In this document: positions 9,001 to 49,890 of the stretch, in pieces
Layout: each line of letters opens with the position of its first letter
Numbering within the stretch: position 1 is the first letter of the stretch
Source of the DNA: Diplonema papillatum
Lineage: Eukaryota
DNA length: 64,000 bases
Direction: 5' to 3'
Assembly (NCBI GenBank): GCA_030068145.1
Contig: JAPJBO010001134.1
Location: 1,408-65,407 of the forward strand
Made by a program: the position numbers and the translations under genes
The notes under the pieces: model-generated
Told to the model about the DNA's origin: nothing
What the model saw: the letters and a program-made list of their open reading frames with translations, nothing else
The model's database searches: none

Positions 9001-10300
9001 ACTGCAGTTGCGTCAACGTATCGCACGCAGTGTCCGCGCACACGACGCAAGGAGAAGATGTTTGAGCACGCAACGCACACTGCATCAAACCGACGCCGAC
9101 TGAATCTGTGCCCATGGTCACCTCCACGAAAGAATTGGCCAAGTTGGCGGCCATGGCCTCCTTCATGACGTTGGCGAAGCTCGACTCGGTCCGGAAGGTG
9201 ACGTTCCAGTACAGCTCGAGCTCCCGCGCCCAGAGGCTCCACCCGGCCTGCCCGTCGGGAGTGTTCGCGGTGAACAGCCACGGCTTCGTCTGGGCCGCCA
9301 CGCCCTGCAGCGAGTGGACGGCCAGCACCTCCCCGGGCGACATGCCGGTGGTGTTCACCAGCAGCAGCTCGGCGGACGCGTTGGGCCCGGCGCTGGCGGC
9401 CGGGAAATAGTACTGCGTCCACTCGTCGGAAGCCGAGGCGAGGCTGGCAACGCAGCAAACCGCTGCGAGACTGGTTCGCATCGCGACCTGAAAGGCGCTC
9501 TGATAATCCCCGAGGCGGCTGCGTGTCTTGCAAAGTGCTGTCCACGCCCGGTTTAGTTTCTCCTTTAGTGTGGTTACCGCGTGTAGCGAGGCTGGTCCGG
9601 ATCCCGTGACTTCGGGAATAGGGTTGGCTTGAGGATTTGAGGATACATGGGTGTTTTCGTTCCTATATGTTGCTTTTCGTCTGAAAGCTTTTGAGTCCAG
9701 CAGTGGTTGCGAGCCCATCGATTGCTTGATCGGGGGTAGGCGACCTCTCACAGTTTCACTGAGGGAGTTGATGCACCACGAAAGTCAATAAGAGGTTGGG
9801 TTAAATGCACAGAATCTGTGGCGATAGTCTGGCGCGGTTATCTCTTTGCACGTGATGTGTCATGCTTTCGCCTCTTTTAGCTCGTCTTGATCGTCGCGCT
9901 CAGGCGCGCGCTTGGTGTCTCGCTTCTTCTTCGACTGCTCGCCCAGGTTCATCGGTTGCGCTTCGATTTCTGCTTCTTCACGGCGCTTGGGCGATGCTGC
10001 GCTTCGACGGGCGCTCCACTCACGCCGTTTTGTTCGGCTCCGACGTAGAGCTCGTTCGCTGCTTCTTCGCTCGCGTCGGTGCCGTCTTTTTGACCCTCGC
10101 CGCTGGTTTCGATGTTGATTCGATAAGAGACCTTCATACAGCCAGCAGGGTGTGGTTGGTTCAAAGAAAAAGTCAAGCTTGACCTCGCCCAAGCTCGTTT
10201 ACATTCCCTTGCGCTGGTGATATCAACGTGTTCTTACTTCTCCCTTTCTTCAAGGCAGTTCTCGCCAGACAATACCGAGCAGAAAACTCCTAGTTTCCTG
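6040..10300. repeat. Segmental duplication unit A (about 4.2 kb), paired with unit B at 13060..17200
   Basis: Long blocks are shared with unit B, with indels in the non-coding parts. Examples: 6070-6560 versus 13090-13880, 7050-7170 versus 14240-14360, the 7847-9751 ORF versus the 14897-16588 ORF, and 9750-10300 versus 16980-17200. Confidence 0.6.
7847..9481 (-). CDS. Secreted, heavily N-glycosylated protein of unknown function, copy A (signal peptide MRTSLAAVCCVASLASASDE)
   Basis: ORF 7847..9751. The real start is probably the M at 9481..9479, which begins a hydrophobic signal peptide. Multiple NxS/T sequons are present. It is about 95% identical to the ORF at 14897..16588. Confidence 0.55.
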   Translation of the reverse strand: MRTSLAAVCCVASLASASDEWTQYYFPAASAGPNASAELLLVNTTGMSPGEVLAVHSLQGVAAQTKPWLFTANTPDGQAGWSLWARELELYWNVTFRTESSFANVMKEAMAANLANSFVEVTMGTDSVGVGLMQCALRAQTSSPCVVCADTACDTLTQLQYKPAGDSRNATYEAFYAATPLTSFRQRVSILQKPATWPSLADYAAFCRCPVYFVPSFSPVPSMVAEILKYTSAEGKGAVTLGYGPDEFDTVSALSESGNGLLASDWALNVATMTNYGMGAVPQFSRRHVQPKPSAQQHAQQQADDDNRHVIAFVMTDGDNLQWLDNTFATSAQWYGCPRRGAVPVGWTLSVSSRDVAAPIYHYLQRVKTQNDTFVGSVSGDTYTYIDEMPDKWATIFTNESASNLKADGIAVVNVMGSTTDLATAAAAAVPYFRAGMQHVLYYPYSGYSNLNGNNTYVSTPEYQGWLLGARYCLWQGQHNVSELIGLLNSQAMDPTSSAGYSVIPVHVWSHTYDDIVSVVNGLNTTRTRVVSLDEYAQLINRAQ

Positions 10301-13059: not shown

Positions 13060-16000
13060 ATAGTAAAACGTCCTCTCCCCCTTTGCTGTATTTAAAAACA
13101 GGGGAAACATTGGAAAGGGCCCCGAGCGGACAGTCGAACGCAGTCTGAGAGATTAGATTGTCAAGCGGCACTCAACTGCTGCGAACCCAGCCCGCTAATG
13201 CGTTCGACGACCTGATGAGTCTCATGATTCTGCAATTCCTTCATTGACTATCGCGACTGGCCGCGGTCTTCATCGTTCCCAGAGGACTGTGAACTTGAAT
13301 TATTGGGTCAGTCCACCATCTTGAGGTACCACCAGGGGTCATCTTGGTGGTATCGCAGTTCACGGGACCACAGGAAGCAGCACAAGGCGACGTGGGCACA
13401 ACTGGCGCGATGCCTGATTTCTTGTACGGACGACCCAAAAAGCGGGACTTCTCTAAAAGTCACTTTTCCGCAGTTCATGACCGGTTGGTGTTGAATGAAG
13501 CTGTTCGATGTCCATCGAACATTTTCGGAAACAATTGAGTGTGGAGGTTCAGTGAGAACACGGGGAGGAAATCAGTCTAAATCGCTGGCATTATCCCCCA
13601 TCCCGGGATAGGGTCCATCCTATCAAGACTACCGGAAGAGCGTTTGAATGTGTAGGGGGTGGTCTTCTGGTAAAAGTTCACAAGACATCAGAGCATACTC
13701 GAGATTTCTAGAAACAAAAGCAAGCAATTCTAGAAAAGGATAGAGGCCTGGATGGTTGACCCTCCTTACGGCTTTCCGCAAGGCACACGGTGGCTCATTG
13801 TGAAGGGTATAAGAGCCCTGTGAACACTGGCAGACCTCATTCCATGGACGGTTCCGTACACAACTGAACATGTCCCAGGGGCGGCCCTACGGGGGGCTGT
13901 TCCACATAGGAAATCCCGAAAAGGGCTGGTAAATCTAGGGAGGGGGATAAAAACAACGAATTGGACTGATGGGGCTACCGTCGATCCCGAGGGACGATCA
14001 GTTTGGTCGTGTGACCTTGGTTTGTTTGGTGAGACTGCTGAAACAAAAATGGGAAGCAAGATGCGGGTTCAGCTTTTTGTGTTTTTCCTTTGCCGACATC
14101 TGGTGCCTTTGGGCCGCCCGGGTATGGACTCTTCCTCATCTCGTCTTTTAGTCTCTGTATGTAGAGCAGACGAATAGGGGGTTAAAAGCTTTTTTTGCGT
14201 TTCCGGCAATATGCGCTCAGTAAGTTGCCCCTTTTGCTTTCTCCATGTGGGCGTACACTTTTCTGGAACACAGATTAGGGATCTTTGAATAATAGCTTTT
14301 CAGGTTTCGGCTCAAACCTGTGGGCGGGACAACGCAGTCTATGTGGCTGAGCAGGCGGTGCCACATTCTCACTGCACGTTCATGTTGTGCTGCAGGTCCG
14401 GGTTTGCGGATAGATCCACTGTCCGTCTCGTTGGATTCTCCGTATTATTTGCCAGCAATGCTTCGGACCGAAGAACGAGAACTTGTTTTGCGTCGGCAGG
14501 CGAAGAGTGGGCTCCCCATTCATGAATTCCGCCAATGCCAGGCACAATACCCGTTTACGTGTGTGAAGGCGACCCAGTTCATGACTTTCTGGTCCAAGTT
14601 TTCAATGGGCTCTGTGCAAAACTTCGGTGATCAAGTTCGCTAGGCTACACAAATCCCTGTTCAGTCACTGACCGAGTTTACCCCCAGTTAAGGCCCTTCA
14701 ATGTATGTTTCGCTGCCGCGTCGTCTGTCTGGGGTATGCACATAGCGCGTTTTCCTGGTTGTTTTCGTCCGTCGGCACCGCCCTCCAATCGCTTTCCTTT
14801 TCCCGAGTTGCTTTTGTACAGCCACGTTGTATATTCAGGTTTCCCACGTTATTTTCAAGTTGCGCCGCAAACGGCGGCTGCCATTGTCCACGGACGCTAC
14901 TCACGCGGCGGTTCATCCTGGTAAATATCTGGCTTAGCACGATTGATGAGCTGTGCGTACTCATCCATGGAGACCACGCGCGTCCGCGTTGTGTCCAGGC
15001 CGTCCACCACCGACACGATGTCATCGTAGGTGTGCGACCACACGTGGACGGGGATCACGCTGTACCCAGCGCTGCTCTCCGGGTCCATGGCTTCTGAATT
15101 GAGGAGGCCGATCAGCTCCGAAACGCTTTGCTGCCCTTGCCACAGACAGTACCGGGCCCCGAGAAGCCAGCCTTGGTACTCAGGCGTCGACACGTACATG
15201 TTGTTCCCATCCAGGTCACAGTAGCCGCTGTACGGGTAGTACAGAACGTACTGCATACCCGCACCGAAGTATGGAGCCGCAGCTGCGGCGGCGGTGGCCA
15301 GATCGGTGGTGCTGCCCATGACGTTGACAACCGCCATGCCGTCTGCTTCGAGGTTGGAGGCCGATTCATTCATAAAAATGCTGGCCCACTTATCGGGCAT
15401 TTCGTCTATGTAAGTGTAGGTGTCGCCGGACACACTGCCGACGAACGTGTCATTCTGTGTCTTGACGCGCTGGAGGTAGTGGTAAATGGGCGCCGCTACA
15501 TCACGCGAGGACACCGACAGCGTCCACCCGACCGGAACGGCACCTCTCCGCGGGCATCCGTACCACTGCGGGCTGGTGGCGAACGTGTTGTCGAGCCATT
15601 GCAAGTTGTCGCCGTCGGTCATCACAAAAGCGATGACGTGCCGGTTGTCGTCGTCTGCTTGTTGCTGTGCGTGCTGCTGCGACTTCGCTGAGGTGCCCGG
15701 GACTGCACTCGGTTTGGGTTGGACATGCCGGCGTGAGAACTGAGGTACCGCGCCCATGCCGTAGTTCGTCATCGTCGCCAAGTTCAGCGCCCAGTCACTC
15801 GCAAGGAGGCCGTTGCCCCTTTCCGAAAGCGCTGAGACCGTGTAGAACTCGTCGGGTCCGTACCCCAAAGTCACCGCGCCTTTGCCTTCGGCGCTGGTGT
15901 ATTTCAGGATCTCGGCCACCATCGACGGGACCGGGCTGAAAGACGGCACGAAGTACACGGGGCACCGACAGAACGCCGCGTAGTCCGCAAGACTCGGCCA

Positions 16001-17200
16001 CGTCGCCGGTTTCTGCAGAATTGACACGCGCTGTCTAAAAGACGTCAGCGGCGTCGCGGCGTAGAAGGCCTCGTACGTCGCCTTCGTCGAGTCACCAGCA
16101 GACGTATACTGCAGTTGCGTCAACGTATCGCACGCAGTGTCCGCGCACACGACGCAAGGAGAAGATGTTTGAGCACGCAACGCACACTGCATCAAACCGA
16201 CGCCGACTGAATCTGTGCCCATGGTCACCTCCACGAAAGAATTGGCCAAGTTGGCGGCTATGGCCTCCTTCATGACGTTGGCGAAGCTCGACTCGGTCCG
16301 GAAGGTGACGTTCCAGTACAGCTCGAGCTCCCCCGCCCAGAGGCTCCACCCGGCCTGCCCGTCGGGAGTGTTCGCAGTGAACAGCCACGGCTTCGTCTGG
16401 GCCGCCACGCCCTGCAGCGAGTGAATGGCCAGCACCTCCTCCGGCGTCATGTCGGTGGTGTCCACCAGCAGCAGCTCGGCGGACGCGTTGGGCCCGGCGC
16501 TGGCGGCCGGGAAATAGTACTGCGTCCACTCGTCGGAAGCCGAGGCGAGGCTGGCAACGCAGCAAACCGCTGCGAGACTGGTTCGCATCGCAAACTGAAA
16601 GGGGCTCTGAAAATACCCGAGGCGGCTGCGTGTGCTGCTGGTGTCGCTTTCAAAGTGCTGCCCACACCCGGTTTTGTTCTCCTTTGGTGTGGTCCGTTAG
16701 TTGTGAACCGTTTTTCCACCGCATCTCTTCGTGTGCATCTCCGGGACAACCGCGTGTAGCGAGGTGGCAAAGTTGACCCGTGATTAGAGTTGGCATTCTA
16801 ATGCTACTACTAGGATACCCGGCGCTTTGGGTCCTATATGTTGCTTGTCGTCTGAGCCTTTGAGCCCAGCAGTGTTTGCGTGCCTACATCAATTGTGCAT
16901 TGCTGGGTCTGCTGTTGATGTCTCCTTTCAGTTGCGAGCCGTCGATTGCTCGAGGTAGTCTCAGGGGTAGGCGACCTCTCACAGTTTCACCGAGGGAGTT
17001 AATGCACCACGAATCGTCGATAAGAGAAATTCACACAGCCAGCAGGGTGTGCTTGGTTCAAAGAAAAAGTCAAGTTTGACCTCGCCAAGCTCGTTTCCCC
17101 GGGGTAAGGCAGTCATTGCGCTCGTGATATCAGTTACAAAGACGTGTTCGTAGTTCTCGCCAGCCAATACGAAGAGCAGAAGCTCCTAGTTTCCTGCCCG
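13060..17200. repeat. Segmental duplication unit B (partner of 6040..10300)
   Basis: See unit A. Unit B carries two extra insertions of about 200-270 bp relative to A. Confidence 0.6.
14897..16588 (-). CDS. Secreted N-glycosylated protein, copy B (563 aa). It has the same signal peptide as copy A and a slightly longer C-terminus.
   Basis: ORF 14897..16588 starts directly at MRTSLAAVCC. It is collinear with copy A, apart from a small AVPGTSAKS insertion and the C-terminal extension. Confidence 0.55.
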   Translation of the reverse strand: MRTSLAAVCCVASLASASDEWTQYYFPAASAGPNASAELLLVDTTDMTPEEVLAIHSLQGVAAQTKPWLFTANTPDGQAGWSLWAGELELYWNVTFRTESSFANVMKEAIAANLANSFVEVTMGTDSVGVGLMQCALRAQTSSPCVVCADTACDTLTQLQYTSAGDSTKATYEAFYAATPLTSFRQRVSILQKPATWPSLADYAAFCRCPVYFVPSFSPVPSMVAEILKYTSAEGKGAVTLGYGPDEFYTVSALSERGNGLLASDWALNLATMTNYGMGAVPQFSRRHVQPKPSAVPGTSAKSQQHAQQQADDDNRHVIAFVMTDGDNLQWLDNTFATSPQWYGCPRRGAVPVGWTLSVSSRDVAAPIYHYLQRVKTQNDTFVGSVSGDTYTYIDEMPDKWASIFMNESASNLEADGMAVVNVMGSTTDLATAAAAAAPYFGAGMQYVLYYPYSGYCDLDGNNMYVSTPEYQGWLLGARYCLWQGQQSVSELIGLLNSEAMDPESSAGYSVIPVHVWSHTYDDIVSVVDGLDTTRTRVVSMDEYAQLINRAKPDIYQDEPPRE

Positions 17201-17664
17201 ATTGGTGTGACGGAGTGAACGTGTTGGCTTGCGTGCGCAGATGCAGTGCAAACTATGAATTCGGCTGCTGCGCAAACGCCGCCGAACGGCTACTTATTCT
17301 ACTGACTGTTCTGCAGCAGCAACAACGCACCACTTTGCGGCTTTCTTGCACCAAGACTGATGACCCCGTCCGAAAGCAAAAGATGAATGGGCAGCAATTT
17401 TGGCCTGACCTCGAGTCAAATCGTGAAGGAAACGAAGGCAACCGTAGAACGAGAGAGAAGGCGAACGAGGGGCAGGGCTCTGGCAGGGCATGTGCCTACC
17501 ATTTCAAGGCTAGTGGAATGAGTGCGCAGCAAAAGATCGGGGCAATTGTGTTCTGCAAACAGCGTGCGGTGAAATAATATCGAGGAATTATTTTTGTTTT
17601 GAAACTGTTGCGGCGGACGGGTGCGGGTTAGAGTCGCACCCGCACGGCATCAACAAACAGTTCA

Positions 17665-18219
17665 TCAGTAGGTGCGGGTTGTTTTGCGGGTTTTGGTCAC
17701 GGTCACTGGTCGGCGACTGCGTGTGACAGGACGTGTTCTCCGGGTCTTCACAACAGTAGTTGCCGGTCTAGTGCGTCTTACGGGGGCTCGTCGCGTGCGT
17801 ACAGGAACAGCACGAGTCCGAGTGGTCGTCGTTTTCGTCGTTCGCCTCGTTGCAGGAGCCACGACGCGACGTCTCCTGCCCTGCCCAACACGTCCATCGT
17901 GGTTCAGGTCTTTGTGGGTTGCCCGCTCTGCGGTGCCGACAACCTTCCGCATGACACCGTTCGACTTTTTGTGCGGGGCGCGCCTTCCATACGGCACGGC
18001 CCCCACGCGGCCGTCGCCGTTTAAATCACGGCCTGTCCTTCTTTCGACGCTGCGTACGCCTGCATTGACTTTGCTACCTGTCGTCCTGCGAACGGGTGCC
18101 CTCGTCGTTGTTGCTGTAGTTGTTCTGTACGCTGGTTTCCTTGCGTACCCCACGCGGCCGTCGTGGTTGAGGTCCTTGCCGGTGCGCGTTTCGAGCTTGC
18201 GGACGAGTTTGTTCAACAT
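17665..18219 (-). CDS. DLNxDGRVG-repeat basic protein, paralog B
   Basis: ATG at 18219..18217 (MLNKLVRKLETRTGKDLNHDGRVG...). It is nearly identical to paralog C. Confidence 0.5.
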   Translation of the reverse strand: MLNKLVRKLETRTGKDLNHDGRVGYARKPAYRTTTATTTRAPVRRTTGSKVNAGVRSVERRTGRDLNGDGRVGAVPYGRRAPHKKSNGVMRKVVGTAERATHKDLNHDGRVGQGRRRRVVAPATRRTTKTTTTRTRAVPVRTRRAPVRRTRPATTVVKTRRTRPVTRSRRPVTVTKTRKTTRTY

Positions 18220-18988
18220 TTTCGCTGGATACTCCGCTTTTGGGTGGCTTTTCTTTTTGCGAGGTAGCAGGAGAGATTCCCTGAGTGAATGTATTCTGCT
18301 GTACACTCCCACGGCATATGCGAGAGCTACGAACTCATGCTCTGCGACCCAGGAGGTGGCTACCAGCTGATGAAGACGTTCACCCGGATGATTGCATCAC
18401 GTATGTCGTCCTCAAGGTGGGCAACAAACTACGAGCTATAATGGGTTGCATGTGCTAGTTTTTGCACGATCCCGAACGCATACTTGGTGCTCGCTCAAAA
18501 CATTCGCTTCGTTGAATGCACGTGATTGACGCAACGCTGGCGCTCTGAAGGCAAGGAAAATGGAAAAGGAAACAACTTGGGCTGACACCTCGAGTGGAAT
18601 CGTGATGTCAAGTTCCTCCCCGCGAAACGGTTTCCTTGTTTTGAGGCCTCGGAGATAGAAGAGAGAGACTTAGGACCAAGAAACTGTTTGCGGTAGACGG
18701 GTAACCTCAGAACGAGAGAGGAGGCGAAGGAGGGGTAGGGCTCTGGCAGGGCATGTGCCTACCATTTCAAGGCTAGTGGAATGGGTGCGCAGCGAAAGAT
18801 GGGGACAAATTGTGTTCTGCGGCTGTATTTTGCACGCAGCCATTTTTCCCAAGGACACTCTGGACGGTTTCGGCTTGAGAATGTTGTGGCGAAGGTGAGG
18901 AGGCGGGATTAGAAAAGTAGTTCGTCCCTTTGCAGTGTGCGGAAGGAGAACCGAAAGCTCGTCGCACCCGGCATCAACAAACAGTTCA

Positions 18989-19543
18989 TCAGTAGGTGCG
19001 GGTTGTTTTGCGTGTTTTGGTCACGGTCACTGGTCGGCGACTGCGTGTGACAGGACGTGTTCTCCGGGTCTTCACAACAGTAGTTGCCGGTCTCGTGCGT
19101 CTTTCGGGGGCTCGTCGCGTGCGTACAGGAACAGCGCGACTCCGAGTGGTCGTCGTTTTCGTCGTTCGCCTCGTTGCAGGAGCCACGACGCGACGTCTCC
19201 TGCCCTGCCCAACACGGCCATCGTGGTTCAGGTCTTTGTGGGTTGCCCGCTCTGCGGTGCCGACAACCTTCCGCATGACGCCGTTCGACTTTTTGTGCGG
19301 GGCGCGCCTTCCATACGACACGGCCCCCACGCGGCCGTCGCCGTTTAAATCACGGCCTGTCCTTCTTTCGACGCTGCGTACGCCTGCATTGACTTTGCTA
19401 CCTGTCGTCCTGCGAACGGGTGCCCTCGTCGTTGTTGCTGTAGTTGTTCTGTACGCTGGTTTCCTTGCGTACCCCACGCGGCCGTCGTGGTTGAGGTCCT
19501 TGCCGGTGCGCGTTTCGAGCTTGCGGACGAGTTTGTTCAACAT
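18989..19543 (-). CDS. DLNxDGRVG-repeat basic protein, paralog C (tandem copy about 1.3 kb from B)
   Basis: ATG at 19543..19541. It is more than 95% identical to B at the protein level. Confidence 0.5.
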   Translation of the reverse strand: MLNKLVRKLETRTGKDLNHDGRVGYARKPAYRTTTATTTRAPVRRTTGSKVNAGVRSVERRTGRDLNGDGRVGAVSYGRRAPHKKSNGVMRKVVGTAERATHKDLNHDGRVGQGRRRRVVAPATRRTTKTTTTRSRAVPVRTRRAPERRTRPATTVVKTRRTRPVTRSRRPVTVTKTRKTTRTY

Positions 19544-19974
19544 GTTTCGAACTCTTGCGTTTAGGTGGTTTGTTTCCTTTGGTAACACTCTACCTGATAA
19601 TAGAGTGAGGGTTTGACCAATTGTGACCCCCCTTCCAGCTAACCGTAGCTACGGTAGCATGCAAATGATTTTCCGGTCCCGCTCGTGTTGCATTGGTGAG
19701 AGTAGTCAGCAAGCCAATGTGCACCACAATGTGCCAGATTTTAGTTACGCGACACCGAAGGGGTCGACTCGTGACGGTTGCAAACGTTGCTGCGGGGCTG
19801 GTGGCAAGTTTACAGTCAGAGTCGGAATCAGATTCGAGATCGTTGTCAGAGTAATTCTCGCTGATGCAGGGTCTGATTTCGTGCCTAGCGACAGAGTACG
19901 AGCGCTCGGCGAAAGGCCGGCGGGGGCGAGACTGGAGGTAGCTGTTAAAGTTCGGGAAACAGTAAAGCTCGGGC

Positions 19975-24608: not shown

Positions 24609-24650
<42 letters not shown>
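24609..24650. repeat. (CA)21 microsatellite immediately 5' of the retrotransposon
   Basis: Direct read: cacacaca... Confidence 0.95.
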
Positions 24651-24652
<2 letters not shown>

Positions 24653-24694
24653 GGGGAAAACCATAACGCACTCAACACATACTCAAACGGTAAA

Positions 24695-25933
24695 ATGACT
24701 ACGAACAACCTCCACGCGGTCCCCCTGGGGCCCGAGGGAATACCCTCGGGCAGCGAAAGGTTCGAAGCCGAAGTGCGTGTGGTGCACCTACCCGAAACCC
24801 GTGCATACACTCTGCGTCTTGAGACGTTGAAGGGGCGGGTAGGTGCGTACGAGCGCCTGGTCGAGCAGCTTGGGTGGGCTGGGGCCAGAGTGCGGATCAA
24901 GAAGGGAGTCGCGCACATCGAGGCGACGGAGCCACCACCAGTTGCCAAGGTGCGCGTTGGCGAGGAGGAAGGCGAAATCGTCGACGTCGAGGCGCGCGAC
25001 CGGGCCCGGCAAGAGGCGCACCGACAGGAGCGCATCCAGCGAACCCGCCAAGAGCTGGACAGCCTCGCCGCTGCAGGACCGCCGAAACGCCTGCCGGACA
25101 ACGGGGCCCCCAGGGGACCCACGTACTCCAAGCCCGAGTTCCTCGCCGAGTTCGGGAAGAAGAAGGGGGAAGACGAGTGGCGCTGGGCGCTCAAAGCGCA
25201 TGAAGAAGTGCGGAAGAGGCAGCTGACGAGACTGCGGGAGCAGCTGAAGGAGCTGTCCCCGACGGACGACGCGGAGATGCGAGAAGAGAGGCGCGAGCAG
25301 GGGAACCAGGACGAGACGGCAGCGGCCTGGGAAGCCTGGGCGCAGCAGCAGAGCAGGCAGCGAGAGGCCTGGCAGAAGGAGCGAACTGCCGCGCGAGAGG
25401 CTTGGGAGGGCGCGTTCGAAAAGCGCTTCCGAAGCTGGGCTGACGCCCAGACGCAGATAGCCACCAAGCGCGAAGACAACGCCTACACGCGCCAGATAGG
25501 GTGGATGGCGGAGACGGAGCAGAAGCTGGACCGTATTACGCAGGAGATGTGCGCCAGAATCGACTCAGCGCTTGGGAGAATTGCACAGGTCGCACAGCAA
25601 TCTGCCGCCGCAGGCGTGCCCGCGCGGACAGACGAGCCCGTACCTGCAATCCAACCGACTCCACCCCCTGCCGAGCCGCCGGTACCTTTAGCCGAAAACG
25701 CCGCGCAGGAGCCCCTCCCGGCCCAGCCCCTCACCACAGCTTCCAAGAAAGGGAAGAAAGCTAAGAAGGAGGCTGACGAAAAGGAGCTGGCCGAGCAGTT
25801 GAAGCAGCTCAACGAAGCTACAAAGAGACCGGTCGCCGGAAAGGCGAAGGGCGGGAAAGGCGGGGGTAAGCAGCAGCTCCTGACTGACATGGTGTCAACC
25901 AACCGCTACAGCCCCATCGATAAAAAGTAGGGG
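24695..25933 (+). CDS. LINE ORF1: coiled-coil (E/R/Q-rich) protein with a Lys-rich basic C-terminal tail
   Basis: ATG at 24695 (MTTNNLHAVPL...). The track ORF beginning at 24527 reads the upstream (CA)n as HTHTHT. The ORF ends at the TAG at 25931-25933, and ORF2 follows in the same reading frame. Confidence 0.6.
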
Positions 25934-25975
25934 GCTGGGCGTGCCGGACAAGAACTGACACCAAGCAAGGAAAAC

Positions 25976-28900
25976 GTGTCAACTGGCGCTGTCCGGTGCG
26001 CCAACCCTACTACTGGCAAGCGAAATCGACGAGGGGAGGAAGTCAAGAGTGTAAACCAGTCAACCGCCGTGAATCAACCGACGCCAGCTGAAAGCGGCGA
26101 CACGGAACTCGACAGGGCGGCTGCGATCTTGCGCGCGAAGCGGATACCGGTTGAGAAAGATGGTAACTGCCAATTTGCCGCGCTGCTGCGAAGTAGTAAG
26201 CTGAGTCTTTCGGCTACTTCCCTAAGGCAGAAGGTAACCTGGCAGCTGCGACACCACCCGCCTTCGGCGTTCCTCCCTACTGATTCGTCTCTATCTGAGT
26301 ATCTTTCCACCGTAGCGCGGGACGGACACTACGGTGACCACCTCACGTTGCAAGCCGCAGCAGAAGTGCTGAAGGCAACTGTGTGGGTACTATCAACAAC
26401 GAATTTGGCGCACCTCAGGTGCGAAGGAAGAGCTGGTAATTCGTCACGCATCATCACCGTGACGTACCGGCCGCAGCACTATGACGCGTTGCACGTACCG
26501 CATGAAACTCTGCAGCTGCTGTCGACCCTCGGCCCCGAGGTGTCACAGCTTCCCCTGAGTGAGATAGCAGCAGACAGTAAACCCAGACTCTCAGCCCGGA
26601 ATACGATAGCGCCCCCTGGTCGCACGATAGTGCTAGCAACGGCAAACGTGGGTTCCATAAATGCGAGAAGTCGGACAGTGGCGACCCTCCCGGCGGACAT
26701 CGTCGCTCTGCAAGAGACCAGGGCGGGCCCAGAGACAAAAAGGACATGCGGGCTGTTTCTTGCGGCATACGGATGGGACTGTCACTGGGGCGAAGACGTG
26801 CCTGTTGTTGTGGGTGCGAACGGTATAGGACAACGGGTGCCAGGAGGCGCAGCTGTCGCCACCCGCGGCATGGTGGCTAGTGTCTCCCAGCCCACAACAG
26901 AGTTGGAGAGAGAGTTGGCGAGGAGTACACGAGTCGCGCACGCGGTGGTGGCAACGGGAAATGCGCGTATGGTGCTGCACGTGATATCGGTGTATGCACC
27001 CGTAGGCAGGGAGGCGGCGGTGGTACGGGATCGGGAGAAGCTCATTGCAGATGTTTTCGAAATGGCGGCAGGACTCGGGCAGGTACCGATAGCTGTCATG
27101 GGTGACTTCAACACGCCGGCAGAGGAAAGCATGTCCCTGACCACAGCCTGCCAAAGTGGATGGGTCGATGCGGCGTCAGCGGCTGCGCGAGCGGGGTCAC
27201 AGGACGCACCGCCCACCTGCTGGGCGGCGGCGGCGGGCTCCCGAATAGACATGTGCTTCCTGAACGCAGTAGCAGCACAGACCGTGGTGACCGTCCAAAC
27301 CGCGAAAGCGGGAGAGTATGACATACCGACCCACTGCCCAATCTTTGTCACACTCAACATACCGGCTTTCACGCCGCCCAAACGCAACCACCGGATACCC
27401 GCCCCTTTCCCGAGGAGAGTGCCAGTGCAGACGCAGGAGCAGAAGCAGAGCATGCTAGCGTCGGCCTTGCGTCGAAAGCGAACGGAAAGTGGGGCGGACG
27501 GGGCGTTGAGGAATGCGTCTGAAGTGGCGGAGGCGTACCTGATTGATTTGCACCGAGAGAACCTCGAACCAGGGTCGACTGCTTACCGGGGTAGAGCCGG
27601 CGGCTACCGCACACGGGAGGCGCACGCATCTGCGAGGCAGGCATGCACGACGCGAGGAGCTATGAATTGGTCCACGAAGCAACGCGATAGAGTTCTTGGA
27701 ATGCTACGCTCAGTGGTCGCGGAGGCAAGGCAGAGGCTCGGTAGCGGACAAGTGGGTGCGATGACGGTAGCAGAACGCAACGCACGAAACGCGTTGCGGA
27801 GAAGAAATGTGGAAGAGTTCTTACCGCAGCTCACGCACTTCGGAAGCAGCGATGAGTTGCAGGAACTCGTGGCGGCGGTAGAGAGGCTGGAAGGATCCCA
27901 ACGTGAAGCGATTGCCGCGCTGAAGACGCAGCGCTCACGCCTCTGGAAGGATCGAATGCAGAAGGCTTGGAGTGGCCCAGAAAAAGGCGATATATATCGG
28001 TTTCTAGCTGGACAGCAAGGGATCCCAACGGCATTTCTGCGACGACAGGATGGCACCTTAACCGCGTGCCCGACGGAGATCGATGAGATGCTGAGAGGGC
28101 CCGGCGCCTGGGGAGGTATATTTCAAAAGTATGCGGACCAACCGGAGCCAGAGTGGGAGGCATTCAAGTCGCAGTACGCACGGTATCTACCCGCGCCGCA
28201 TGCGATGGAATGCGAGCCCATCAGTGCTGCTGATGTGGACGCGGCACTCAAGAAGATGAAAAAGACATCGTCCCCCGGACTACATGGATGGCGCGTGCAC
28301 GAGCTACGACAACTCCCCTCGGAAATCCTACAACTCATGGCAGATGCCATGAACGCAGTGGAAAGCGAGGGACGATGGCCGGAACAGCTAATGCATGCGA
28401 TCATTCACCTGCTTCCGAAGCCCGAAAGCAACGGGGACCCCTTGTCGCAACGACCGATTTCGATAACGCCTGTCCTGTACCGGATATGGGCAGCCGTAAG
28501 GGCGAAGGCAGCACTCGCGTGGATGGACGAGATTGCGCCGAGCGGCCTGCATGGATGTCGGAAGGAACATGGAACAGACGACCTGGTATGGCACTTGGCA
28601 GCGCTTATCGAAGAGGCGCACCTAACGGGAGAGCCACTCTTTGGCCTAGCGCTGGACTTCCAAAAGTGCTTTGACTCGGTACCGATCGAAGTAGCCTTTA
28701 AGCTGGCCGAGGAGCTGGGGTTTAACGAGGTTGTACTGCGGACTCTGAGGGCAGCCTACACCAACATGCGGCGTCACTTCCGGGTGGGAGCAACGGTTGG
28801 AGAAGGCTTCGTGCCTACGAACGGGATAATGCAGGGATGCCCGCTGAGTGTCATCCTAATTAACGTCATCATCAGTGTCTGGATGCGACACGTAGCGGAC

Positions 28901-31768
28901 ATCGAAGCGGCGATTCCGCTATCGTACGTCGATGACGTGTATGCAATGCTGAAGACGTTTGCCGATTTAGAGGAGGCAGCCAGGCGGTCAGGAATGTTCG
29001 CCGGGCTGACCGGGATGAAAGTCTGCACGCAGAAAAAGTCGCATTTTTTCACGACGGCGTCGGACACCCCGCAAACCCTTGATTATGCGGAAAGCGACGG
29101 CACAGCAGTGAACAACGGGCGACAAGAAGGTATACAAAGGCGGGTGACATTCGACGTTCTCGGCGTGATGCTAACCACAGAGAAGGTGCCACCGGGGGAG
29201 GTAATTCGGCCGTCGAAACGGATTGTGGAGAGGAACTCCGAAGCTGAGCGGGTGCTGAAAAGGGCAGCTTGCCTCCCGCTGCCAGGCGAAGCGAAGGACC
29301 TCGTGGTCAGCATGTCAGCGGGAGCTAAACGGTACTACGGTGCAGCAGTATCGGGAATGACGAAGCGGGACAGCGTGCGCCTGAGAAGATTGTTCACGGA
29401 GGCGATGTGGACTGGGCCGCCGCGCCGAGCTCAAGAGGCGGTCCTACATATCCTACATCATGGGCACCGACTCGACCCGGTAGTTGTGCCGGCATACAGA
29501 AGAATCACCACCTGGGCAGTGCAACTCAAGAAGTGGGAGTCCGCGAGATCTCTGTCACAGACAGCGTGGGAGCACAGCGACTCGCTTGCGACATTGCATG
29601 GACCTTTCGCCTTCTTCAAAGAAGCGCTAGACGGACTCGGGTGGCGATGGGTGGCACCAACCAGCATCGCCTACACGAACGAAGCCGGAGACGAGGTAGT
29701 GCATGATGCAGCGGCACAGGACAACACGAAGCTTCTACAGCACGACCTGCGATACGCTTTGAGACTACGCGAAATGGCTCAGCTCGCGGCAAGGCGGGGA
29801 GGAGACTTCGGGGGAGTGCGGGACGGGGTGGATTACCAGACAACCCGGCACCTGCTGGAGATGCACGATTCCCCACTCACCGCGTATCAAGCCGGCATGC
29901 TGAAATCAGTGATTGTGGGAGCCACGCCGGCGGCTGGACGAACAGGGGCCGGTGAAGAAAGCTGTCTATACTGCAATACGGAGGAACGAGAAACGGTGGA
30001 TCACCTTTTCTGGAGCTGCCCCGCTTGGGAGCACTTGCGCGCGAAGTACGAAGACATAAGGACCATGCAGGTAAACTGGCCCCCGTGTCTGCGCTTGTGC
30101 GGGATAGCCCCAGCCCCTCAGGTAGACGAAAGCACCTCCGTGCTGCCGGCAGAAAAGGAGAAAAGGCGGCATGTAGTGAAGCGACTGCAACTGTTCTTTG
30201 TCGAAGTGCTGAGGGAACGCCAGGGTGCCGACGGCCTGCTCGACAGGTCAGCCCGGCATCACAGGACAGAGAGCTACCCGCGAGGCTGGAGACCAACTGA
30301 ACCCTGCCGACTCGCAGTCCCTTTCATTGCGCCATCCGCCGTGACAACGAAATGGAAATACGGACGGGAAATGTGGATGGCGTTCACCGACTGGCTGCGG
30401 CAGGTGAAATGGGCACCCCCGGGACACGACGAGCTGGGCATCAGCTTCATCGAGTTAGCTGTAGAGTTCGAAATGCACACCGGACAGCGGCTCCCTGACC
30501 TCAAAAGCAGGTACTATACAGCAGTACCTCAAGCACAGACAGGCAAGGTGACAGCAGCTCGCACAACGCTAGCGGATGGGGAAATGGGCGACAGCAGGTT
30601 GCTTGTGTGCTTCGATGGTGGGGCGAGAGCGAACGGAACCGCCTTCGCCGTTGCTGGCGCAGGGGCGGTGATGTACCGAGACGGCGTCAAGGTGTCGGAG
30701 GTAATCCTGCCGCTGCCCACCGTGCGCAGCAATAACGTGGCAGAGTATGAAGCGGTGCTAGCGGGCCTGCATCTGCTGAACGAAGCGAACGATGCGGACG
30801 GCACGCAGTGTACGGTGCGGGGGGACTCGGCACTGGTAGTGGGGCAGCTTTTGCGACGCCTGGCATGTTCCGAGGAGCTCAAGCCATACCAGACACGCGC
30901 TGCCAGAATGGTTTCTTCCCTGCAGCGACGGATGACAGTGCGCATCGAGCACGTCAAGCGCGAGAGGAACACGGACGCTGATGCCCTGAGTAACGCCGCC
31001 ATGGACTTGGTGCAGCGCCAGCGGCCGACTCCTCGAAGGCAAGAGAAGATGCTAACCGACTTTCGCCGGTCCGCCTTGGGCAAAGCGCTTAGCCTCGTTG
31101 AGATGGGGAAGGCGTACAAGAAGGTGACGGGGCAGCCGTGGTTCTATGGCCATGAGTACTCCTCCACCGTGCTGACATCCCTGGGAGGGACGGTTGTACG
31201 GGGCGTCTCCCGACGAGCGCAGCTGTCAGAGGCGACAGAAGGCATCATCGTGAGGATACGCGAACACGCGCAGGCGGGAATCGCGGACGAACATGAGAGC
31301 AGCCCTTACCCGCCACACCTGAAGTGGGCCGCAACCTTCTTGCCAGAGGAGGCTTACCCGGCAGGATGGACACAGGGAAAACCCGACTGGAAAGGCAGAA
31401 CGGAAGAGGCCGAAAGGGGTTCAAGCACTGACCCGCGCAAAGGTGCCCCCCCGTGCGAGGCCCCAGAAGGCGCTGCTAACACTTCCCGCCCTGGAGTGGT
31501 TTGCTCGCTCCACAAAAAGCCGCGATGCAGTGAGTGCGTAAAAAAGCGTCTACCGGCGGAGACCTGCTGTCGCCTCAAGCAGCATCATCACGGATCGGAT
31601 GGTCTAAGGCCCCGGATGCACTTCTGCACAGCTCACAGACTAGGACGTTGCGGCGATTGTGTGGCTGAAAACGAAGCATTAGCCAGCTGCTGCACAAAGC
31701 ATCACGCAAACAGGAGAGCGAATGGAGGCCCCCACTCCCAGCCCGGGGGTGCATCGGCCGTCACCTAG
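25976..31768 (+). CDS. LINE ORF2 polyprotein (1930 aa). N to C: OTU-like cysteine protease, AP (exo/endo/phosphatase) endonuclease, reverse transcriptase, Cys-rich knuckle, RNase H, Cys/His-rich C-terminus.
   Basis: OTU: VEKDGNCQFAALLRS, then GDHLTLQAAAEVL and RPQHYDAL. Endonuclease: IVALQETRAG, and later GDFNTPAEE. Reverse transcriptase: the F/YxDD box is YVDDV. Knuckle: CLYCN...H...C. RNase H: FDGGARANG, VAEYEA, GDS. C-terminus: CSLHKKPRCSECVKK...CTAHRLGRCGDC. Confidence 0.85.
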   Translation: MSTGAVRCANPTTGKRNRRGEEVKSVNQSTAVNQPTPAESGDTELDRAAAILRAKRIPVEKDGNCQFAALLRSSKLSLSATSLRQKVTWQLRHHPPSAFLPTDSSLSEYLSTVARDGHYGDHLTLQAAAEVLKATVWVLSTTNLAHLRCEGRAGNSSRIITVTYRPQHYDALHVPHETLQLLSTLGPEVSQLPLSEIAADSKPRLSARNTIAPPGRTIVLATANVGSINARSRTVATLPADIVALQETRAGPETKRTCGLFLAAYGWDCHWGEDVPVVVGANGIGQRVPGGAAVATRGMVASVSQPTTELERELARSTRVAHAVVATGNARMVLHVISVYAPVGREAAVVRDREKLIADVFEMAAGLGQVPIAVMGDFNTPAEESMSLTTACQSGWVDAASAAARAGSQDAPPTCWAAAAGSRIDMCFLNAVAAQTVVTVQTAKAGEYDIPTHCPIFVTLNIPAFTPPKRNHRIPAPFPRRVPVQTQEQKQSMLASALRRKRTESGADGALRNASEVAEAYLIDLHRENLEPGSTAYRGRAGGYRTREAHASARQACTTRGAMNWSTKQRDRVLGMLRSVVAEARQRLGSGQVGAMTVAERNARNALRRRNVEEFLPQLTHFGSSDELQELVAAVERLEGSQREAIAALKTQRSRLWKDRMQKAWSGPEKGDIYRFLAGQQGIPTAFLRRQDGTLTACPTEIDEMLRGPGAWGGIFQKYADQPEPEWEAFKSQYARYLPAPHAMECEPISAADVDAALKKMKKTSSPGLHGWRVHELRQLPSEILQLMADAMNAVESEGRWPEQLMHAIIHLLPKPESNGDPLSQRPISITPVLYRIWAAVRAKAALAWMDEIAPSGLHGCRKEHGTDDLVWHLAALIEEAHLTGEPLFGLALDFQKCFDSVPIEVAFKLAEELGFNEVVLRTLRAAYTNMRRHFRVGATVGEGFVPTNGIMQGCPLSVILINVIISVWMRHVADIEAAIPLSYVDDVYAMLKTFADLEEAARRSGMFAGLTGMKVCTQKKSHFFTTASDTPQTLDYAESDGTAVNNGRQEGIQRRVTFDVLGVMLTTEKVPPGEVIRPSKRIVERNSEAERVLKRAACLPLPGEAKDLVVSMSAGAKRYYGAAVSGMTKRDSVRLRRLFTEAMWTGPPRRAQEAVLHILHHGHRLDPVVVPAYRRITTWAVQLKKWESARSLSQTAWEHSDSLATLHGPFAFFKEALDGLGWRWVAPTSIAYTNEAGDEVVHDAAAQDNTKLLQHDLRYALRLREMAQLAARRGGDFGGVRDGVDYQTTRHLLEMHDSPLTAYQAGMLKSVIVGATPAAGRTGAGEESCLYCNTEERETVDHLFWSCPAWEHLRAKYEDIRTMQVNWPPCLRLCGIAPAPQVDESTSVLPAEKEKRRHVVKRLQLFFVEVLRERQGADGLLDRSARHHRTESYPRGWRPTEPCRLAVPFIAPSAVTTKWKYGREMWMAFTDWLRQVKWAPPGHDELGISFIELAVEFEMHTGQRLPDLKSRYYTAVPQAQTGKVTAARTTLADGEMGDSRLLVCFDGGARANGTAFAVAGAGAVMYRDGVKVSEVILPLPTVRSNNVAEYEAVLAGLHLLNEANDADGTQCTVRGDSALVVGQLLRRLACSEELKPYQTRAARMVSSLQRRMTVRIEHVKRERNTDADALSNAAMDLVQRQRPTPRRQEKMLTDFRRSALGKALSLVEMGKAYKKVTGQPWFYGHEYSSTVLTSLGGTVVRGVSRRAQLSEATEGIIVRIREHAQAGIADEHESSPYPPHLKWAATFLPEEAYPAGWTQGKPDWKGRTEEAERGSSTDPRKGAPPCEAPEGAANTSRPGVVCSLHKKPRCSECVKKRLPAETCCRLKQHHHGSDGLRPRMHFCTAHRLGRCGDCVAENEALASCCTKHHANRRANGGPHSQPGGASAVT

Positions 31769-31828
31769 CTTAATCTGAGCGTGGTCGTACTTTCGTGAAG
31801 GGAGGCACCACGTTAAAACGGGTCCGTA

Positions 31829-31862
31829 ACACACACACACACAAACACAAACACAAACACAA
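31829..31862. repeat. (AC)n/(ACACAAAC)n microsatellite-like 3' tail of the LINE, followed by (TCAC)3
   Basis: Direct read at 31829-31876. Confidence 0.8.
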
Positions 31863-31925
31863 TCACTCACTCACTCGCTGACGGAAGGTAACACAAAACA
31901 GAAGCGCTGTGTGCCGCGCAACTTT

Positions 31926-33416
31926 CTACTCCAACGGAATAACGTCGCCTTCCTGCGTCCAGCCATAGATGGGCAGAGGCGAATCGTATTCAAGGGGCTC
32001 CGAGTAAGGCACGTTGGTCGGCGTCGTGGTGTTGACGGCGGTCGGGGACAGCGTGAGCGCGATGGCTTCGGGGCCCAGCGCGTGGTACGGCGTGTTGCAC
32101 GGCGTCGGCTTCGCGTAGCAGAGCCCCGGCGGCGCCGCCGCCGCCGCGGGGCGGCCGGGCAGCTGCGGAGCGGGCTGCGCGGGGACCGACGTCGGCCGGG
32201 CCACCGTCGTCGGTGGCTGCTCTGCAGGGCGTTGCGCGGGTTGGCGGTGGGGCTCGGCTGGCGGGCGGAAGTACTGCTGGCGGCCCTGCGACGACGGGTG
32301 GCCGTGCGGCACGGCGCCGGGCTGCTGCTTCGCGGCCAGCGGCGGCGCGGGCGTCGCCGGCGGCGACTGCAGCGGCGGCGGGCGGGCGGCCGGGGGCTGC
32401 TGCCCGGCATCGGCGGCGGCGGCGGCGGGGTGCGCGCGTGGGCGGTGCCTGGCCGACGGCAGCCTGGCGGCGTACGGGCGAGACGGCGGCGCGCTCGACG
32501 GCGCGGCTGAAAGCGGGTCGCTTTCTTTCGTCGGGTAATTCGCCGGCGTTTTGATGGAACCGACGGTGACTTGGCTGCTGGGTGCGTCGTAGGACAGCAT
32601 GTAATCTTCGTTGGCCAAATCGGGTCTCGTCGGCGTGCAACTTGGCGTCACGTCGGTTGCCGGGCTTCCAACCCCACGTTTCGCTGGCGATCTCCGGGCA
32701 CTGAGGCCCCTTGGCCTGCTCAGGCGGACGACATACGGCATTCCCACGGCGCCTGTCGCATTCCCAGCGGCCCCGCGCATCATGGTTCTCGCCCTCTGCC
32801 GTGGCCGTGCGACGTACGGCATTCCTTTGGTTTCCCCGTCGTCCATGAGGGGGGGTCCCTTGCTGCTGTCTGCGGACGAGATGTAAAGCGTGGCAGCCCG
32901 GGTCCTGCCGATGGTTGAAGCGGGTGCACTGTGTTGCACCGGCTGCATCGGACTCTGCGCTGCGGGGATGCTGGGTGGTTCGCGGATGGTCGCGTGCATC
33001 GATGTTGGTATAGACGGCAGGCTCGACGGTATCGTGGAGGCAGATGAGCTGGGCATGGGAGGGTCTGTGGCATCGCCTTCACCTGCGGCGCGGTTCGCTA
33101 ACTGGGTGAGGGTGAGCGGCTTGCGAGCGCTGTTGTCACTGAACCGGGCTGGCGCGCCGTTGGGCGAGCTGGCGTCGGCTGCGTGAATGTTTTCGTGCGC
33201 GGGCTGCTGCGGATGGTTTCGCATTGCGGACGCGAGGCACACCATGGCGCAGACAGCCAACGTCAGCAGCACCGCGAATGCGACGTAGTAGAACGCTTCG
33301 TTCGCCAACAGGCCATCGTATCCGGTCCCGCCGACTGTTAACCACGGTTCCGCTTCGGCCGGAACAACCCCGGCAACTAGAACGACACCAGCGATCGTCG
33401 CTCTGCACAGCGGCAT
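31926..33416 (-). CDS. Putative single-pass membrane protein. It has an N-terminal signal peptide and a transmembrane segment, then a long Pro/Ala/Ser-rich low-complexity cytoplasmic region (mucin- or proline-rich-like).
   Basis: ORF 31926..33416: MPLCRATIAGVVLVAGVVPAEA, then FYYVAFAVLLTLAVCAMVCLAS, then extreme P/A/S/Q bias. The region is very GC-rich, so over-calling is possible. Confidence 0.3.
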   Translation of the reverse strand: MPLCRATIAGVVLVAGVVPAEAEPWLTVGGTGYDGLLANEAFYYVAFAVLLTLAVCAMVCLASAMRNHPQQPAHENIHAADASSPNGAPARFSDNSARKPLTLTQLANRAAGEGDATDPPMPSSSASTIPSSLPSIPTSMHATIREPPSIPAAQSPMQPVQHSAPASTIGRTRAATLYISSADSSKGPPLMDDGETKGMPYVARPRQRARTMMRGAAGNATGAVGMPYVVRLSRPRGLSARRSPAKRGVGSPATDVTPSCTPTRPDLANEDYMLSYDAPSSQVTVGSIKTPANYPTKESDPLSAAPSSAPPSRPYAARLPSARHRPRAHPAAAAADAGQQPPAARPPPLQSPPATPAPPLAAKQQPGAVPHGHPSSQGRQQYFRPPAEPHRQPAQRPAEQPPTTVARPTSVPAQPAPQLPGRPAAAAAPPGLCYAKPTPCNTPYHALGPEAIALTLSPTAVNTTTPTNVPYSEPLEYDSPLPIYGWTQEGDVIPLE

Positions 33417-49107: not shown

Positions 49108-49890
49108 GTGTCTCCCTCAAAGTTTGAAGGTTTCCAGGGTGGGGACATCTCCGGACGTCAAAATAGAGGTGTCTCCTTGGTGGGGACAACTCGAAACGAT
49201 GAAATTCAAGTGTCTCCCTCAAAGTTTGAAGGTTTCCAGGGTGGGGACATCTCCGGATGTCAAAATGGAGGTGTCTCCTTGGTGGGGACAACTCGAAACA
49301 ATGAAATTCAAGTGTCTCCCTCAAAGTTTGAAGGTTTCCAGGGTGGGGACATCTCCGGATGTCAAAATAGAGGTGTCTCCTTGGTGGGGACAACTCGAAA
49401 CAATGAAATTCAAGTGTCTCCCTCAAAGTTTGAAGGTTTCCAGGGTGGGGACATCTCCGGACGTCAAAATAGAGGTGTCTCCTTGGTGGGGACAACTCGA
49501 AACAATGAAATTCAAGTGTCTCCCTCAAAGTTTGAAGGTTTCCAGGGTGGGGACATCTCCGGACGTCAAAATCGAGGTGTCTCCTTGGTGGGGACAACTC
49601 GAAACAATGAAATTCAAGTGTCTCCCTCAAAGTTTGAAGGTTTCCAGGGTGGGGACATCTCCGGACGTCAAAATAGAGGTGTCTCCTTGGTGGGGACAAC
49701 TCGAAACAATGAAATTCAAGTGTCTCCCTCAAAGTTTGAAGGTTTCCAGGGTGGGGACATCTCCGGATGTCAAAATAGAGGTGTCTCCTTGGTGGGGACA
49801 ACTCGAAACAATGAAATTCAAGTGTCCCCTTCAAAGTTTGAAGGTTTCCAGGGTGGGGACATCTCCGGATGTCAAAATGGAGGTGTCGTA
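49039..49890. repeat. Tandem array with a 102-bp unit, about 8.3 copies, 95-99% identical. The array is open in at least three reading frames.
   Basis: The period was measured as 49085 to 49187. The unit is CAACTCGAAACAATGAAATTCAAGTGTCTCCCTCAAAGTTTGAAGGTTTCCAGGGTGGGGACATCTCCGGACGTCAAAATAGAGGTGTCTCCTTGGTGGGGA. Confidence 0.9.

Follow-up and report, generated by a model that had tools for sequence, protein, structure and literature searches.

The window analysed here is a stretch of 64,000 nucleotides (nt) from the euglenozoan protist Diplonema papillatum (assembly GCA_030068145.1, contig JAPJBO010001134.1, positions 1,408 to 65,407 of the forward strand), and coordinates below refer to it unless a relative is named. 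Three of its open reading frames (ORFs) are identical to the D. papillatum proteins DIPPA_16414, DIPPA_16416 and DIPPA_16422, and positions 24651-31828 are a full-length copy of a young, multi-copy, APE-type retrotransposon without long terminal repeats (non-LTR), that is, a long interspersed nuclear element (LINE). The LINE proper is 7.18 kb long and of the OTU-APE-RT-RNaseH type (RT, reverse transcriptase), and its parts follow one another in the order ORF1, UAG, OTU protease, APE endonuclease, RT, CCHC motif, RNase H and Cys/His tail. When the LINE and its flanks are compared with themselves only the CA tracts are found, and it has no terminal repeats. Its untranslated regions (UTRs), ORFs and domains are the following (aa, amino acids):

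24651-24694, + strand: 5' UTR, 44 nt, opening with a G run (GGGGGGAAAACC...)
24695-25930, + strand: ORF1, 411 aa, with a conserved N-terminal domain, a coiled-coil middle and a basic C-terminus with the motif NRYSPIDKK; ends in TAG
25931-31768, + strand: ORF2, 1945 codons plus TAG, in the same frame as ORF1; terminal TAG at 31766-31768
26159-26404, + strand: OTU-like cysteine protease (PF02338, 23.6 bits, cutoff 23.3), with Cys in DGNCQF and His in HYD
26636-27277, + strand: APE-type endonuclease (PF03372, E 1e-13)
28418-29164, + strand: reverse transcriptase with YVDD (PF00078, E 6e-17)
29963-30019, + strand: CCHC motif, C-x2-C-x10-H-x4-C; C1345, C1348, H1358 and C1363 are invariant in the alignment
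30605-31000, + strand: RNase H (PF13456, E 1e-8; PF00075, E 1e-4)
31769-31828, + strand: 3' UTR, 60 nt, ending ...GGGTCCGTA, without poly(A) and without a repeat tail

The APE and RT domains lie within one ORF by Pfam, and ORF1 has no match there. Among solved structures (PDB) the best relative of the RT is human L1 ORF2p (E 7e-14), slightly ahead of R2 (3e-11). The OTU domain sits at the N-terminus of ORF2, directly past the in-frame stop, and is also present in the relatives P0033, P0037, P0047 and P0107; its catalytic Cys and His motifs are invariant across the alignment of ORF2 with its relatives. A literature search for OTU domains in mobile elements found reports for Helentrons only. Near its other end ORF2 has a Cys/His-rich C-terminal tail (CSLHKKPRCSECVKKR...CCTKHH, 31500-31765) without a Pfam match, and it closes with a conserved ...GASAVT* motif that is common to P0008, P0033 and L001. 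Neither ORF1 nor ORF2 contains a 2A (NPG/NPGP) motif, and Rfam has no relevant family for the LINE.

The D. papillatum genome paper lists about 2500 retroelement-like gene models, the elements being left uncharacterised (PMC10161547). Other copies in this species were compared as protein models, and the DNA comparisons were made with relatives from other assemblies. Variants of the 411-aa ORF1 are annotated on 12, 10, 6 and 4 contigs and three more on one contig each (35 contig occurrences), and two more models, 409 and 408 aa long and each on a single contig, have the same C-terminus as the 411-aa form. These annotated copies, of which there are at least 37, are >99% identical, and every one ends ...NRYSPIDKK. 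ORF2 is also represented by a 99% identical copy (P0034, 5'-truncated and beginning within the RT). The family to which the window LINE belongs is both abundant and young.

The relatives L001, L002, L003 and L010 (ENA ERZ25071330) have an ORF2 about 46% identical to that of the window LINE; L007 (43%) and L009 (29%) are from ENA ERZ25333236, and L008 (34%) is from a JGI metagenome. The hosts of these assemblies are presumably diplonemids. Scans of larger collections gave a weak 2.9-kb locus (L006) among metagenomes, a 618-bp fragment (L011) among genomes and no match among viral sequences. L010 is a 5'-truncated 3' fragment of 1240 bp that is 99.9% identical to L001. At the first, second and third codon positions of ORF2, L001 and L002 diverge by 4%, 2% and 19%, respectively, and they are subfamilies that diverged under purifying selection; all of the indels between them, including two in the linker past the stop, preserve the frame. 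L008 also contains a second, 5'-truncated copy of the LINE (6247-6420 of that locus), which lies head-to-tail about 100 nt past the other copy's 3' end and is cut by the contig end.

The gene models of these LINEs (P0021, P0034, P0182-P0184, P0201, P0208 and P0219) are artefactual in several ways. Public ORF2 models begin at an internal Met within the APE domain, and models of the P0021 type leap from the C-terminal motif of ORF1 (SNKRY) to the middle of the OTU domain by an apparently invented intron that spans the stop. Several models join the RNase H region of one LINE to the ORF1 of another on the same strand, and these fusions suggest that head-to-tail arrangements of LINEs are frequent in D. 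papillatum.

The in-frame stop codon and the predicted RNA stem downstream of it

A preliminary description of the window, made from the sequence alone, had noted that ORF1 and ORF2 share a frame and are separated by a single TAG. This is correct: there is exactly one intervening stop, although it lies at 25928-25930 and not at 25931. The features at and just past it are:

25928-25930, + strand: UAG, the proposed readthrough codon, in the context AAG-UAG-GGG-GCU-G
25931-25937, + strand: G-rich spacer of 7 nt (GGGGCUG; GGGGGCG in L001 and L002)
25938-25950, + strand: 5' arm of the stem, GGCGUGCCGGACA, from fold prediction and covariation
25990-26002, + strand: 3' arm of the stem, UGUCCGGUGCGCC; the stem has 13 bp and its loop 39 nt

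The ORF2 frame is open from 25931 onward (the GTG at 25976 is merely the first bacterial-type start chosen by the ORF lister), and its first 190 codons contain no in-frame stop, whereas the two alternative frames have 9 and 10. An ATG in frame first occurs at codon 314 (nt 26870), within the APE domain, and the earlier ATGs are all out of frame; thus an AUG-initiated ORF2 product would lose the OTU domain and the start of APE. In L008 and L009 the first Met of ORF2 is likewise past the OTU catalytic Cys. The position of the stop is kept in the 37 or more annotated D. papillatum ORF1 copies, and in the ORF1s of five D. papillatum families (45-100% identical) the stop falls 2-4 codons past the motif NR[YF][SN]P[ILY]. 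Since all annotated ORF1s of the family terminate there, the in-frame stop is a feature of the active element and not of the window copy alone. A single stop in the same frame is also found in four of the five intact related lineages (29-46% identity), where its context is TAG-GGG in L001 and L002, TGA-CCG in L008 and TGA-CTG in L009.

Could the TAG be a decay mutation in what was a single-ORF element, or could UAG be a sense codon in this host? The sequences that would speak for this are L003 and L007, which have GAG and TGG at the stop position, and the D. papillatum model P0236, which continues through that position with no extra residue; however, the copies that lack the stop are otherwise decayed or frame-shifted, and the ORF1 end is conserved among near-identical copies and across the five ORF1 families. 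UAG is a genuine stop in D. papillatum, in that DIPPA_16414, DIPPA_16416 and ORF2 itself all end in TAG, and its use as a sense codon was rejected on those grounds. We consider this explanation to be largely refuted and very improbable. An intron that removes the stop was rejected as a conserved mechanism, as L001 reads AAUAGG and has no GU at the stop.

The predicted stem begins 7 nt past the UAG, and the minimum-energy fold of the window LINE has it as its core, and an equivalent 14-bp stem is predicted in L001 and in L002 when each sequence is folded alone. In the alignment of these sequences, which includes L003, 92.9% of the stem cells are paired, versus 34-46% in controls with the 3' arm moved by 1-3 columns. 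Four pairs have changed on both sides (G-C/A-U, G-U/U-G/C-G, G-C/C-G and A-U/C-G), and three substitutions in the 5' arm between L001 and L002 keep the pairing while changing the encoded amino acids (GGGRSGQ vs GGGHPGQ). The linker around the stem is otherwise unalignable, and 43 residues of L001 are missing from the window LINE. The stem is absent from L007, which has its own ATG in another frame, and so it is missing in the one lineage that has no need of it. The anatomy of this region, its conservation and the covariation are direct observations on the aligned sequences.

Type III readthrough signals, known from gammaretroviruses, epsilonretroviruses and tombusviruses, consist of UAG-G followed by ~8 nt of purine-rich spacer and then a 3' structure, and extended stems ~8 nt past the stop are a common stimulator of readthrough (PMC3542737, PMC3159437). 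The LINE sequences have a UAG followed by a G/purine-rich spacer (UAG-GGGGCUG in the window LINE, UAG-GGGGGCG in L001 and L002), a 13-14-bp stem predicted in silico 7 nt 3' of the stop, where the viral structures lie at ~8 nt, and an in-frame downstream ORF that depends on an upstream start (there is no in-frame ATG for 313 codons). Judged by sequence and predicted fold, the stop context, spacer and stem match the viral type III signals. The preliminary description had pointed to a CARYYA-like context or a downstream stem-loop as possible signals; the CARYYA (type I) context is absent after the stop, which is followed by GGG instead, and a stem-loop is predicted 7 nt past the TAG.

We infer that ORF2 is most likely made by readthrough of the UAG from ORF1. 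The kept stop, the conserved frame, the lack of a usable ATG and the covarying stem all support this suggestion, which was already made in the preliminary description. The principal competitor is that ORF2 is made by termination-reinitiation or by internal or non-AUG initiation, in which case the shared frame would be incidental and the stem could serve reinitiation, RNA packaging or RT binding. It has precedent in known LINEs, for which reinitiation or translational coupling has been proposed (human L1 and SART1, the latter with a downstream structure; PMC5972666), and it can draw on L007, with its 46-nt spacer and own ATG in another frame, and on L001, which has an ATG just before its OTU catalytic Cys. 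Against it stand the lack of an in-frame ATG over 313 codons in the window ORF2, where the intervening ATGs are out of frame, the position of the first Met past the catalytic Cys in L008 and L009, the maintenance of the frame through many indels, and the match of the stop-proximal context, the spacer and the stem to readthrough signals; we regard it as unlikely.

Several observations weigh against readthrough. In L007 (43% identity) ORF2 is in another frame with its own ATG after a 46-nt spacer, TGG stands at the stop position and the real stop is 11 codons later; L007 thus shows that the clade can switch strategy and that separate frames with an ATG are workable. The preliminary description had held that copies with ORF1 and ORF2 in different frames would contradict its reading, and L007 is in part such a case, while the arrangement is kept in 4/5 lineages. 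The stop position is also GAG in L003 and is read through in P0236, both of which are otherwise decayed; the peptide past that position in P0236, GGLGAPGKN, shows the frame to be the same in a D. papillatum family of 59% identity. The stability of the stem by itself is modest for GC-rich sequence (z about -2), the covariation comes from four sequences in two or three lineages, and structures past the stop in L008 and L009 are no better than shuffled controls (the UGA-C contexts of these two may suffice, or the signal may lie elsewhere). Finally, the support for readthrough comes from sequence and predicted fold.

The flanking CA tracts and the insertion target

The preliminary description had also drawn attention to simple repeats on both sides of the LINE, and proposed either that dinucleotide microsatellites are targeted or that the reverse transcriptase makes a microsatellite-type 3' tail. 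The (CA)21 is indeed upstream of the ORF1 ATG at 24695, with 44 nt rather than 45 between them, and the LINE is indeed followed by an AC tract:

24609-24650, + strand: (CA)21, the 5'-side microsatellite, taken to be host target; the 15 nt at its end (24636-24650), ACACACACACACACA, form the putative 5' copy of a target-site duplication (TSD)
31829-31843, + strand: putative 3' TSD copy, ACACACACACACACA, that is (AC)7A, which matches the last 15 nt of (CA)21
31844-31880, + strand: apparent leftover of the degenerate host microsatellite, (AACAC/AAACAC)n and then (TCAC)3

After (AC)7A the 3' flank reads AACAC AAACAC AAACAC AA and then (TCAC)3. Only two CA/AC runs of at least 6 units occur in the 64-kb window, and both are at the ends of the LINE.

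The origin of such sequence is seen most directly in L007, which sits in an actin paralogue, and an intact actin copy at the same locus provides the empty site. The left flank of L007 aligns to the intact copy up to 22193 and the right flank from 22178, so the TSD is 16 bp long (ACCACATCACATCACA) and the ends of the element are exact. The CA-rich sequence at L007 is present in the uninterrupted paralogue and is, therefore, target DNA. L010 is flanked by the TSD CACACACACGGG and has a further 3-nt CAC microhomology at its truncation point. The CA-rich TSDs of the relatives are thus 12-16 bp long, and it is the sense strand that is CA-rich in each of the three insertions with a defined TSD. At the 5' side, (CA)8 directly precedes the G-run 5' end of L001, and a G run immediately follows the CA-rich flank at all three 5' ends. 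The 3' UTRs are 60 nt in the window LINE, 54 nt in L001, L002 and L010 and 55 nt in L007, none with poly(A) or a repeat tail; the 3' ends of L001 and L007 were set by copy comparison and the empty site, and three copies of the L001 family have a common 3' end without a repeat tail.

How often would CA-rich TSDs be expected? In the window and the related loci, 0.26% of 15-nt windows contain at least 5 CA dinucleotides (strand-specific), and of the readable insertions, five at most, three (the window copy, L007 and L010) have TSDs that are CA-rich on the sense strand, which at that background is far beyond chance. The boundary on the 5' side is also indicated by the chimeric D. papillatum model P0201, in which the translated 5' UTR of the window family (RGENHNALNTYSNGK) stands behind a different upstream sequence, so that the 5' boundary falls at or close to 24651. 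By analogy with L007 and L010, these data support the reading that both flanking CA/AC tracts are target DNA and that the right AC tract is a TSD rather than a tail made by the RT. Of the two proposals in the preliminary description, targeting of CA repeats therefore gains support from the TSD match and the L007 empty site, and the RT-made tail is not supported, the 3' UTRs of three families being 54-60 nt long and without a repeat tail.

The alternative is that the tracts belong to the LINE, as a 5' terminal repeat and a simple-repeat 3' tail made by RT slippage. Many LINEs do end in short tandem repeats (PMC5405496), (CA)n lies 26-44 nt upstream of the ORF1 ATG in both the window LINE and L001, and a ACACAAAAC motif is found near the 3' ends of these same two. 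However, the CA-rich sequence of L007 exists without the element, the L001-family copies share a 3' end that lacks a repeat tail, the 3' UTR lengths agree only with an end of the window LINE at 31828, and in P0201 the 5' UTR is preceded by different sequence; we consider this alternative quite unlikely. The idea that A/C-rich 3' tails are part of the LINE was rejected specifically by the L007 empty site, at which the supposed tail is target DNA. Insertion into the tail of an older element was also rejected, as no homology to a LINE remnant was found upstream of (CA)21 even at E = 10. Between the UTRs (5' and 3') of the window LINE and those of L001 there is no homology beyond the CA runs and one 9-mer.

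Some facts count on the other side. For the window copy itself, the TSD and the 3' boundary rest on analogy and on protein models. Neither L001 nor L002 has a CA-rich 3' flank, and no TSD was found for L001 in spite of the (CA)8 on its 5' side. The comparison of flanks among copies, suggested in the preliminary description, is thus mixed, with CA-rich TSDs in L007 and L010 and no CA-rich 3' flank in L001 or L002, and for this reason targeting is not strict. The data support a preference of the clade for CA-rich targets, not a strict specificity. This preference probably comes from the endonuclease, which would nick the TG strand preferentially; no sequence able to anneal to the target is common to the 3' ends of the three families.

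Two further observations concern the insertion sites and the 3' UTRs. L007 (7889-16047 of its locus) lies at the very 3' end of a CA-rich, intron-like tract in the actin paralogue (...CACATCACATCACA/G GACTTC, the slash marking the junction), its 3' TSD copy retains the AG acceptor, and the junction of the window LINE likewise reads (CA)nCAG/G. CA-rich tracts that precede acceptor sites may be the natural targets. Secondly, the 3' UTRs of two families contain a hairpin whose loop, GCGCA, is conserved and whose 5-bp stems covary fully (GATCC/GGATC vs ATTCT/AGAAT), at 14805-14819 in L001, 8379-8393 in L002, 1902-1916 in L010 and 16000-16014 in L007. This hairpin is a candidate recognition element for the RT; it was not found in the 3' UTR of the window LINE, where a different hairpin occurs.

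Other features of the window

The convergent gene DIPPA_16416 has its stop codon at 31926-31928 on the minus strand, ~98 nt from the 3' end of the LINE, and so its 3' UTR must be very short or run antisense into the LINE. At 60133-64000 on the minus strand there is a relic of a different LINE family (46% amino-acid identity in the RT), which is cut by the window end. It has homology to APE and RT only, no RNase H homology was found downstream, its last ORF2 homology is near 61082 and its ORF stops at 60133; at the DNA level L009 is its closest relative. The preliminary description had placed the end of this relic next to a (CT)n tract, and this is not borne out, as the tract, (AG)12 at 59635-59659, lies ~475 nt past the end of the ORF and cannot be linked to the relic's 3' end; the relic thus lends nothing to the microsatellite proposal.

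The window also contains a 2-kb segmental duplication (92%; 7497-9526 and 14594-16633) with the paralogues DIPPA_16412 and DIPPA_16414, a tandem array of eight 102-bp units (98%) at 49070-49887, a second tandem array of 109/219-bp units over about 1.6 kb at 53216-54813, and shorter dispersed repeats (343-581 bp, 96-98%), including 17645-18224 and 18969-19549.

Proposed mechanism and comparison with known systems

The observations can be joined as follows. The LINE would have entered a (CA)n microsatellite by target-primed reverse transcription, with CA on its sense strand and with the preference for CA-rich DNA probably set by the nicking specificity of its endonuclease. Insertion would have duplicated up to 15 bp of the repeat, leaving the (CA)21 on the left and the (AC)7A on the right, both of them target DNA. 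Translation of ORF1 would start at its AUG and usually end at the UAG at 25928; some ribosomes would read the UAG as sense and go on into ORF2, helped by the UAG-GGG context, the 7-nt G-rich spacer and the 13-bp stem, and the product would be an ORF1-ORF2 fusion at a low fixed ratio, much as gammaretroviral Gag-Pol. We hold this joint account, insertion into a CA-rich target with a TSD together with UAG readthrough aided by the stem, with moderate confidence, readthrough itself and any OTU cleavage of the fusion being its conditional parts.

A broader proposal, which we put forward more tentatively and rate as somewhat less than an even chance, is that this diplonemid LINE clade has converged on the gammaretroviral plan, with a Gag-like ORF1, a leaky UAG with an RNA stimulator and an OTU protease that heads an EN-RT-RNase H polyprotein (EN, endonuclease), perhaps releasing ORF2p, and has added to it CA-rich insertion directed by the endonuclease. 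The OTU protease right past the stop suggests polyprotein processing in a non-LTR element, but processing of the ORF1-ORF2 fusion by it is speculation.

How ORF2 is translated from a bicistronic LINE RNA is partly understood, and the mechanisms so far are reinitiation, translational coupling and frameshifting. A conserved in-frame stop, an ORF2 with no start codon and a covarying stem offer a clear case in which programmed readthrough can be tested in an element that is neither viral nor of the LTR type. If true, it would give the first LINE whose readthrough signal is defined and stimulated by structure, in a host that can be transformed, and would explain how the low ratio of ORF2p to ORF1p is set. 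Our search of the literature, whose coverage is incomplete, gave no euglenozoan LINE reported to have a readthrough site that combines a conserved, covarying stimulatory structure with a protease domain directly past it. Neither idea is new in itself, as targeting of CA-type microsatellites is already known (Mino and Waldo; PMC3812793) and LINE readthrough has already been suggested (Paramecium; PMC5405496). The CA-rich preference, with its empty-site control, is a protist example of repeat-targeted LINE integration, and the results also bear on annotation of the repeat-rich (52%) D. papillatum genome, in which gene models split, truncate or chimerise these LINEs.

Among known elements, the trypanosomatid ingi/L1Tc LINEs are similar in their euglenozoan hosts and in the order APE-RT-RNase H; the window LINE differs from them in lacking a 2A (NPGP) motif and poly(A), and it has an OTU domain as well as a separate ORF1. 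Human L1 and Bombyx SART1 share with it the arrangement of an ORF1 and an ORF2 with APE-RT-CCHC, TSDs of ~15 bp and 5'-truncated copies. Human L1, however, has a 63-nt spacer between its ORFs, unconventional reinitiation and a poly(A) tail and has no OTU, whereas the window LINE is without poly(A); in SART1 translation is coupled at UAAUG.

In their targets the closest parallels are Mino in (AC)n and Waldo in (ACAY)n (both R1), Kibi and Koshi (Tx1), and Dong, which are APE LINEs found in CA-type repeats in a fixed orientation (PMC3812793). The likeness is in the targets; the present LINE is in a euglenozoan protist, its domain set includes OTU and RNase H, and its preference, which is not strict, is for CA-rich 12-16-mers, including (CACAT)n and CACACACACGGG. 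In their coding strategy the group 3 LINEs of Paramecium resemble it, with ORF2 in frame with ORF1 and a suggestion by the authors that the ORF1 stop is read through; that proposal was made from consensus sequences only, with no stimulatory structure reported, in a ciliate with a variant code, and those LINEs have short 3' repeats (PMC5405496).

The closest parallel to the predicted translation signal is the gag-UAG-pro-pol arrangement of gammaretroviruses and epsilonretroviruses, which likewise has an in-frame UAG, a following G, a purine-rich spacer of ~8 nt and an RNA structure, and in which a protease comes first past the stop, followed by RT and RNase H (PMC3542737, PMC3159437). The differences are that the window element is a non-LTR element with an APE endonuclease, that its protease is of the OTU and not the aspartic type, and that where MuLV has a compact pseudoknot the LINE has a predicted extended stem-loop after a 7-nt spacer.

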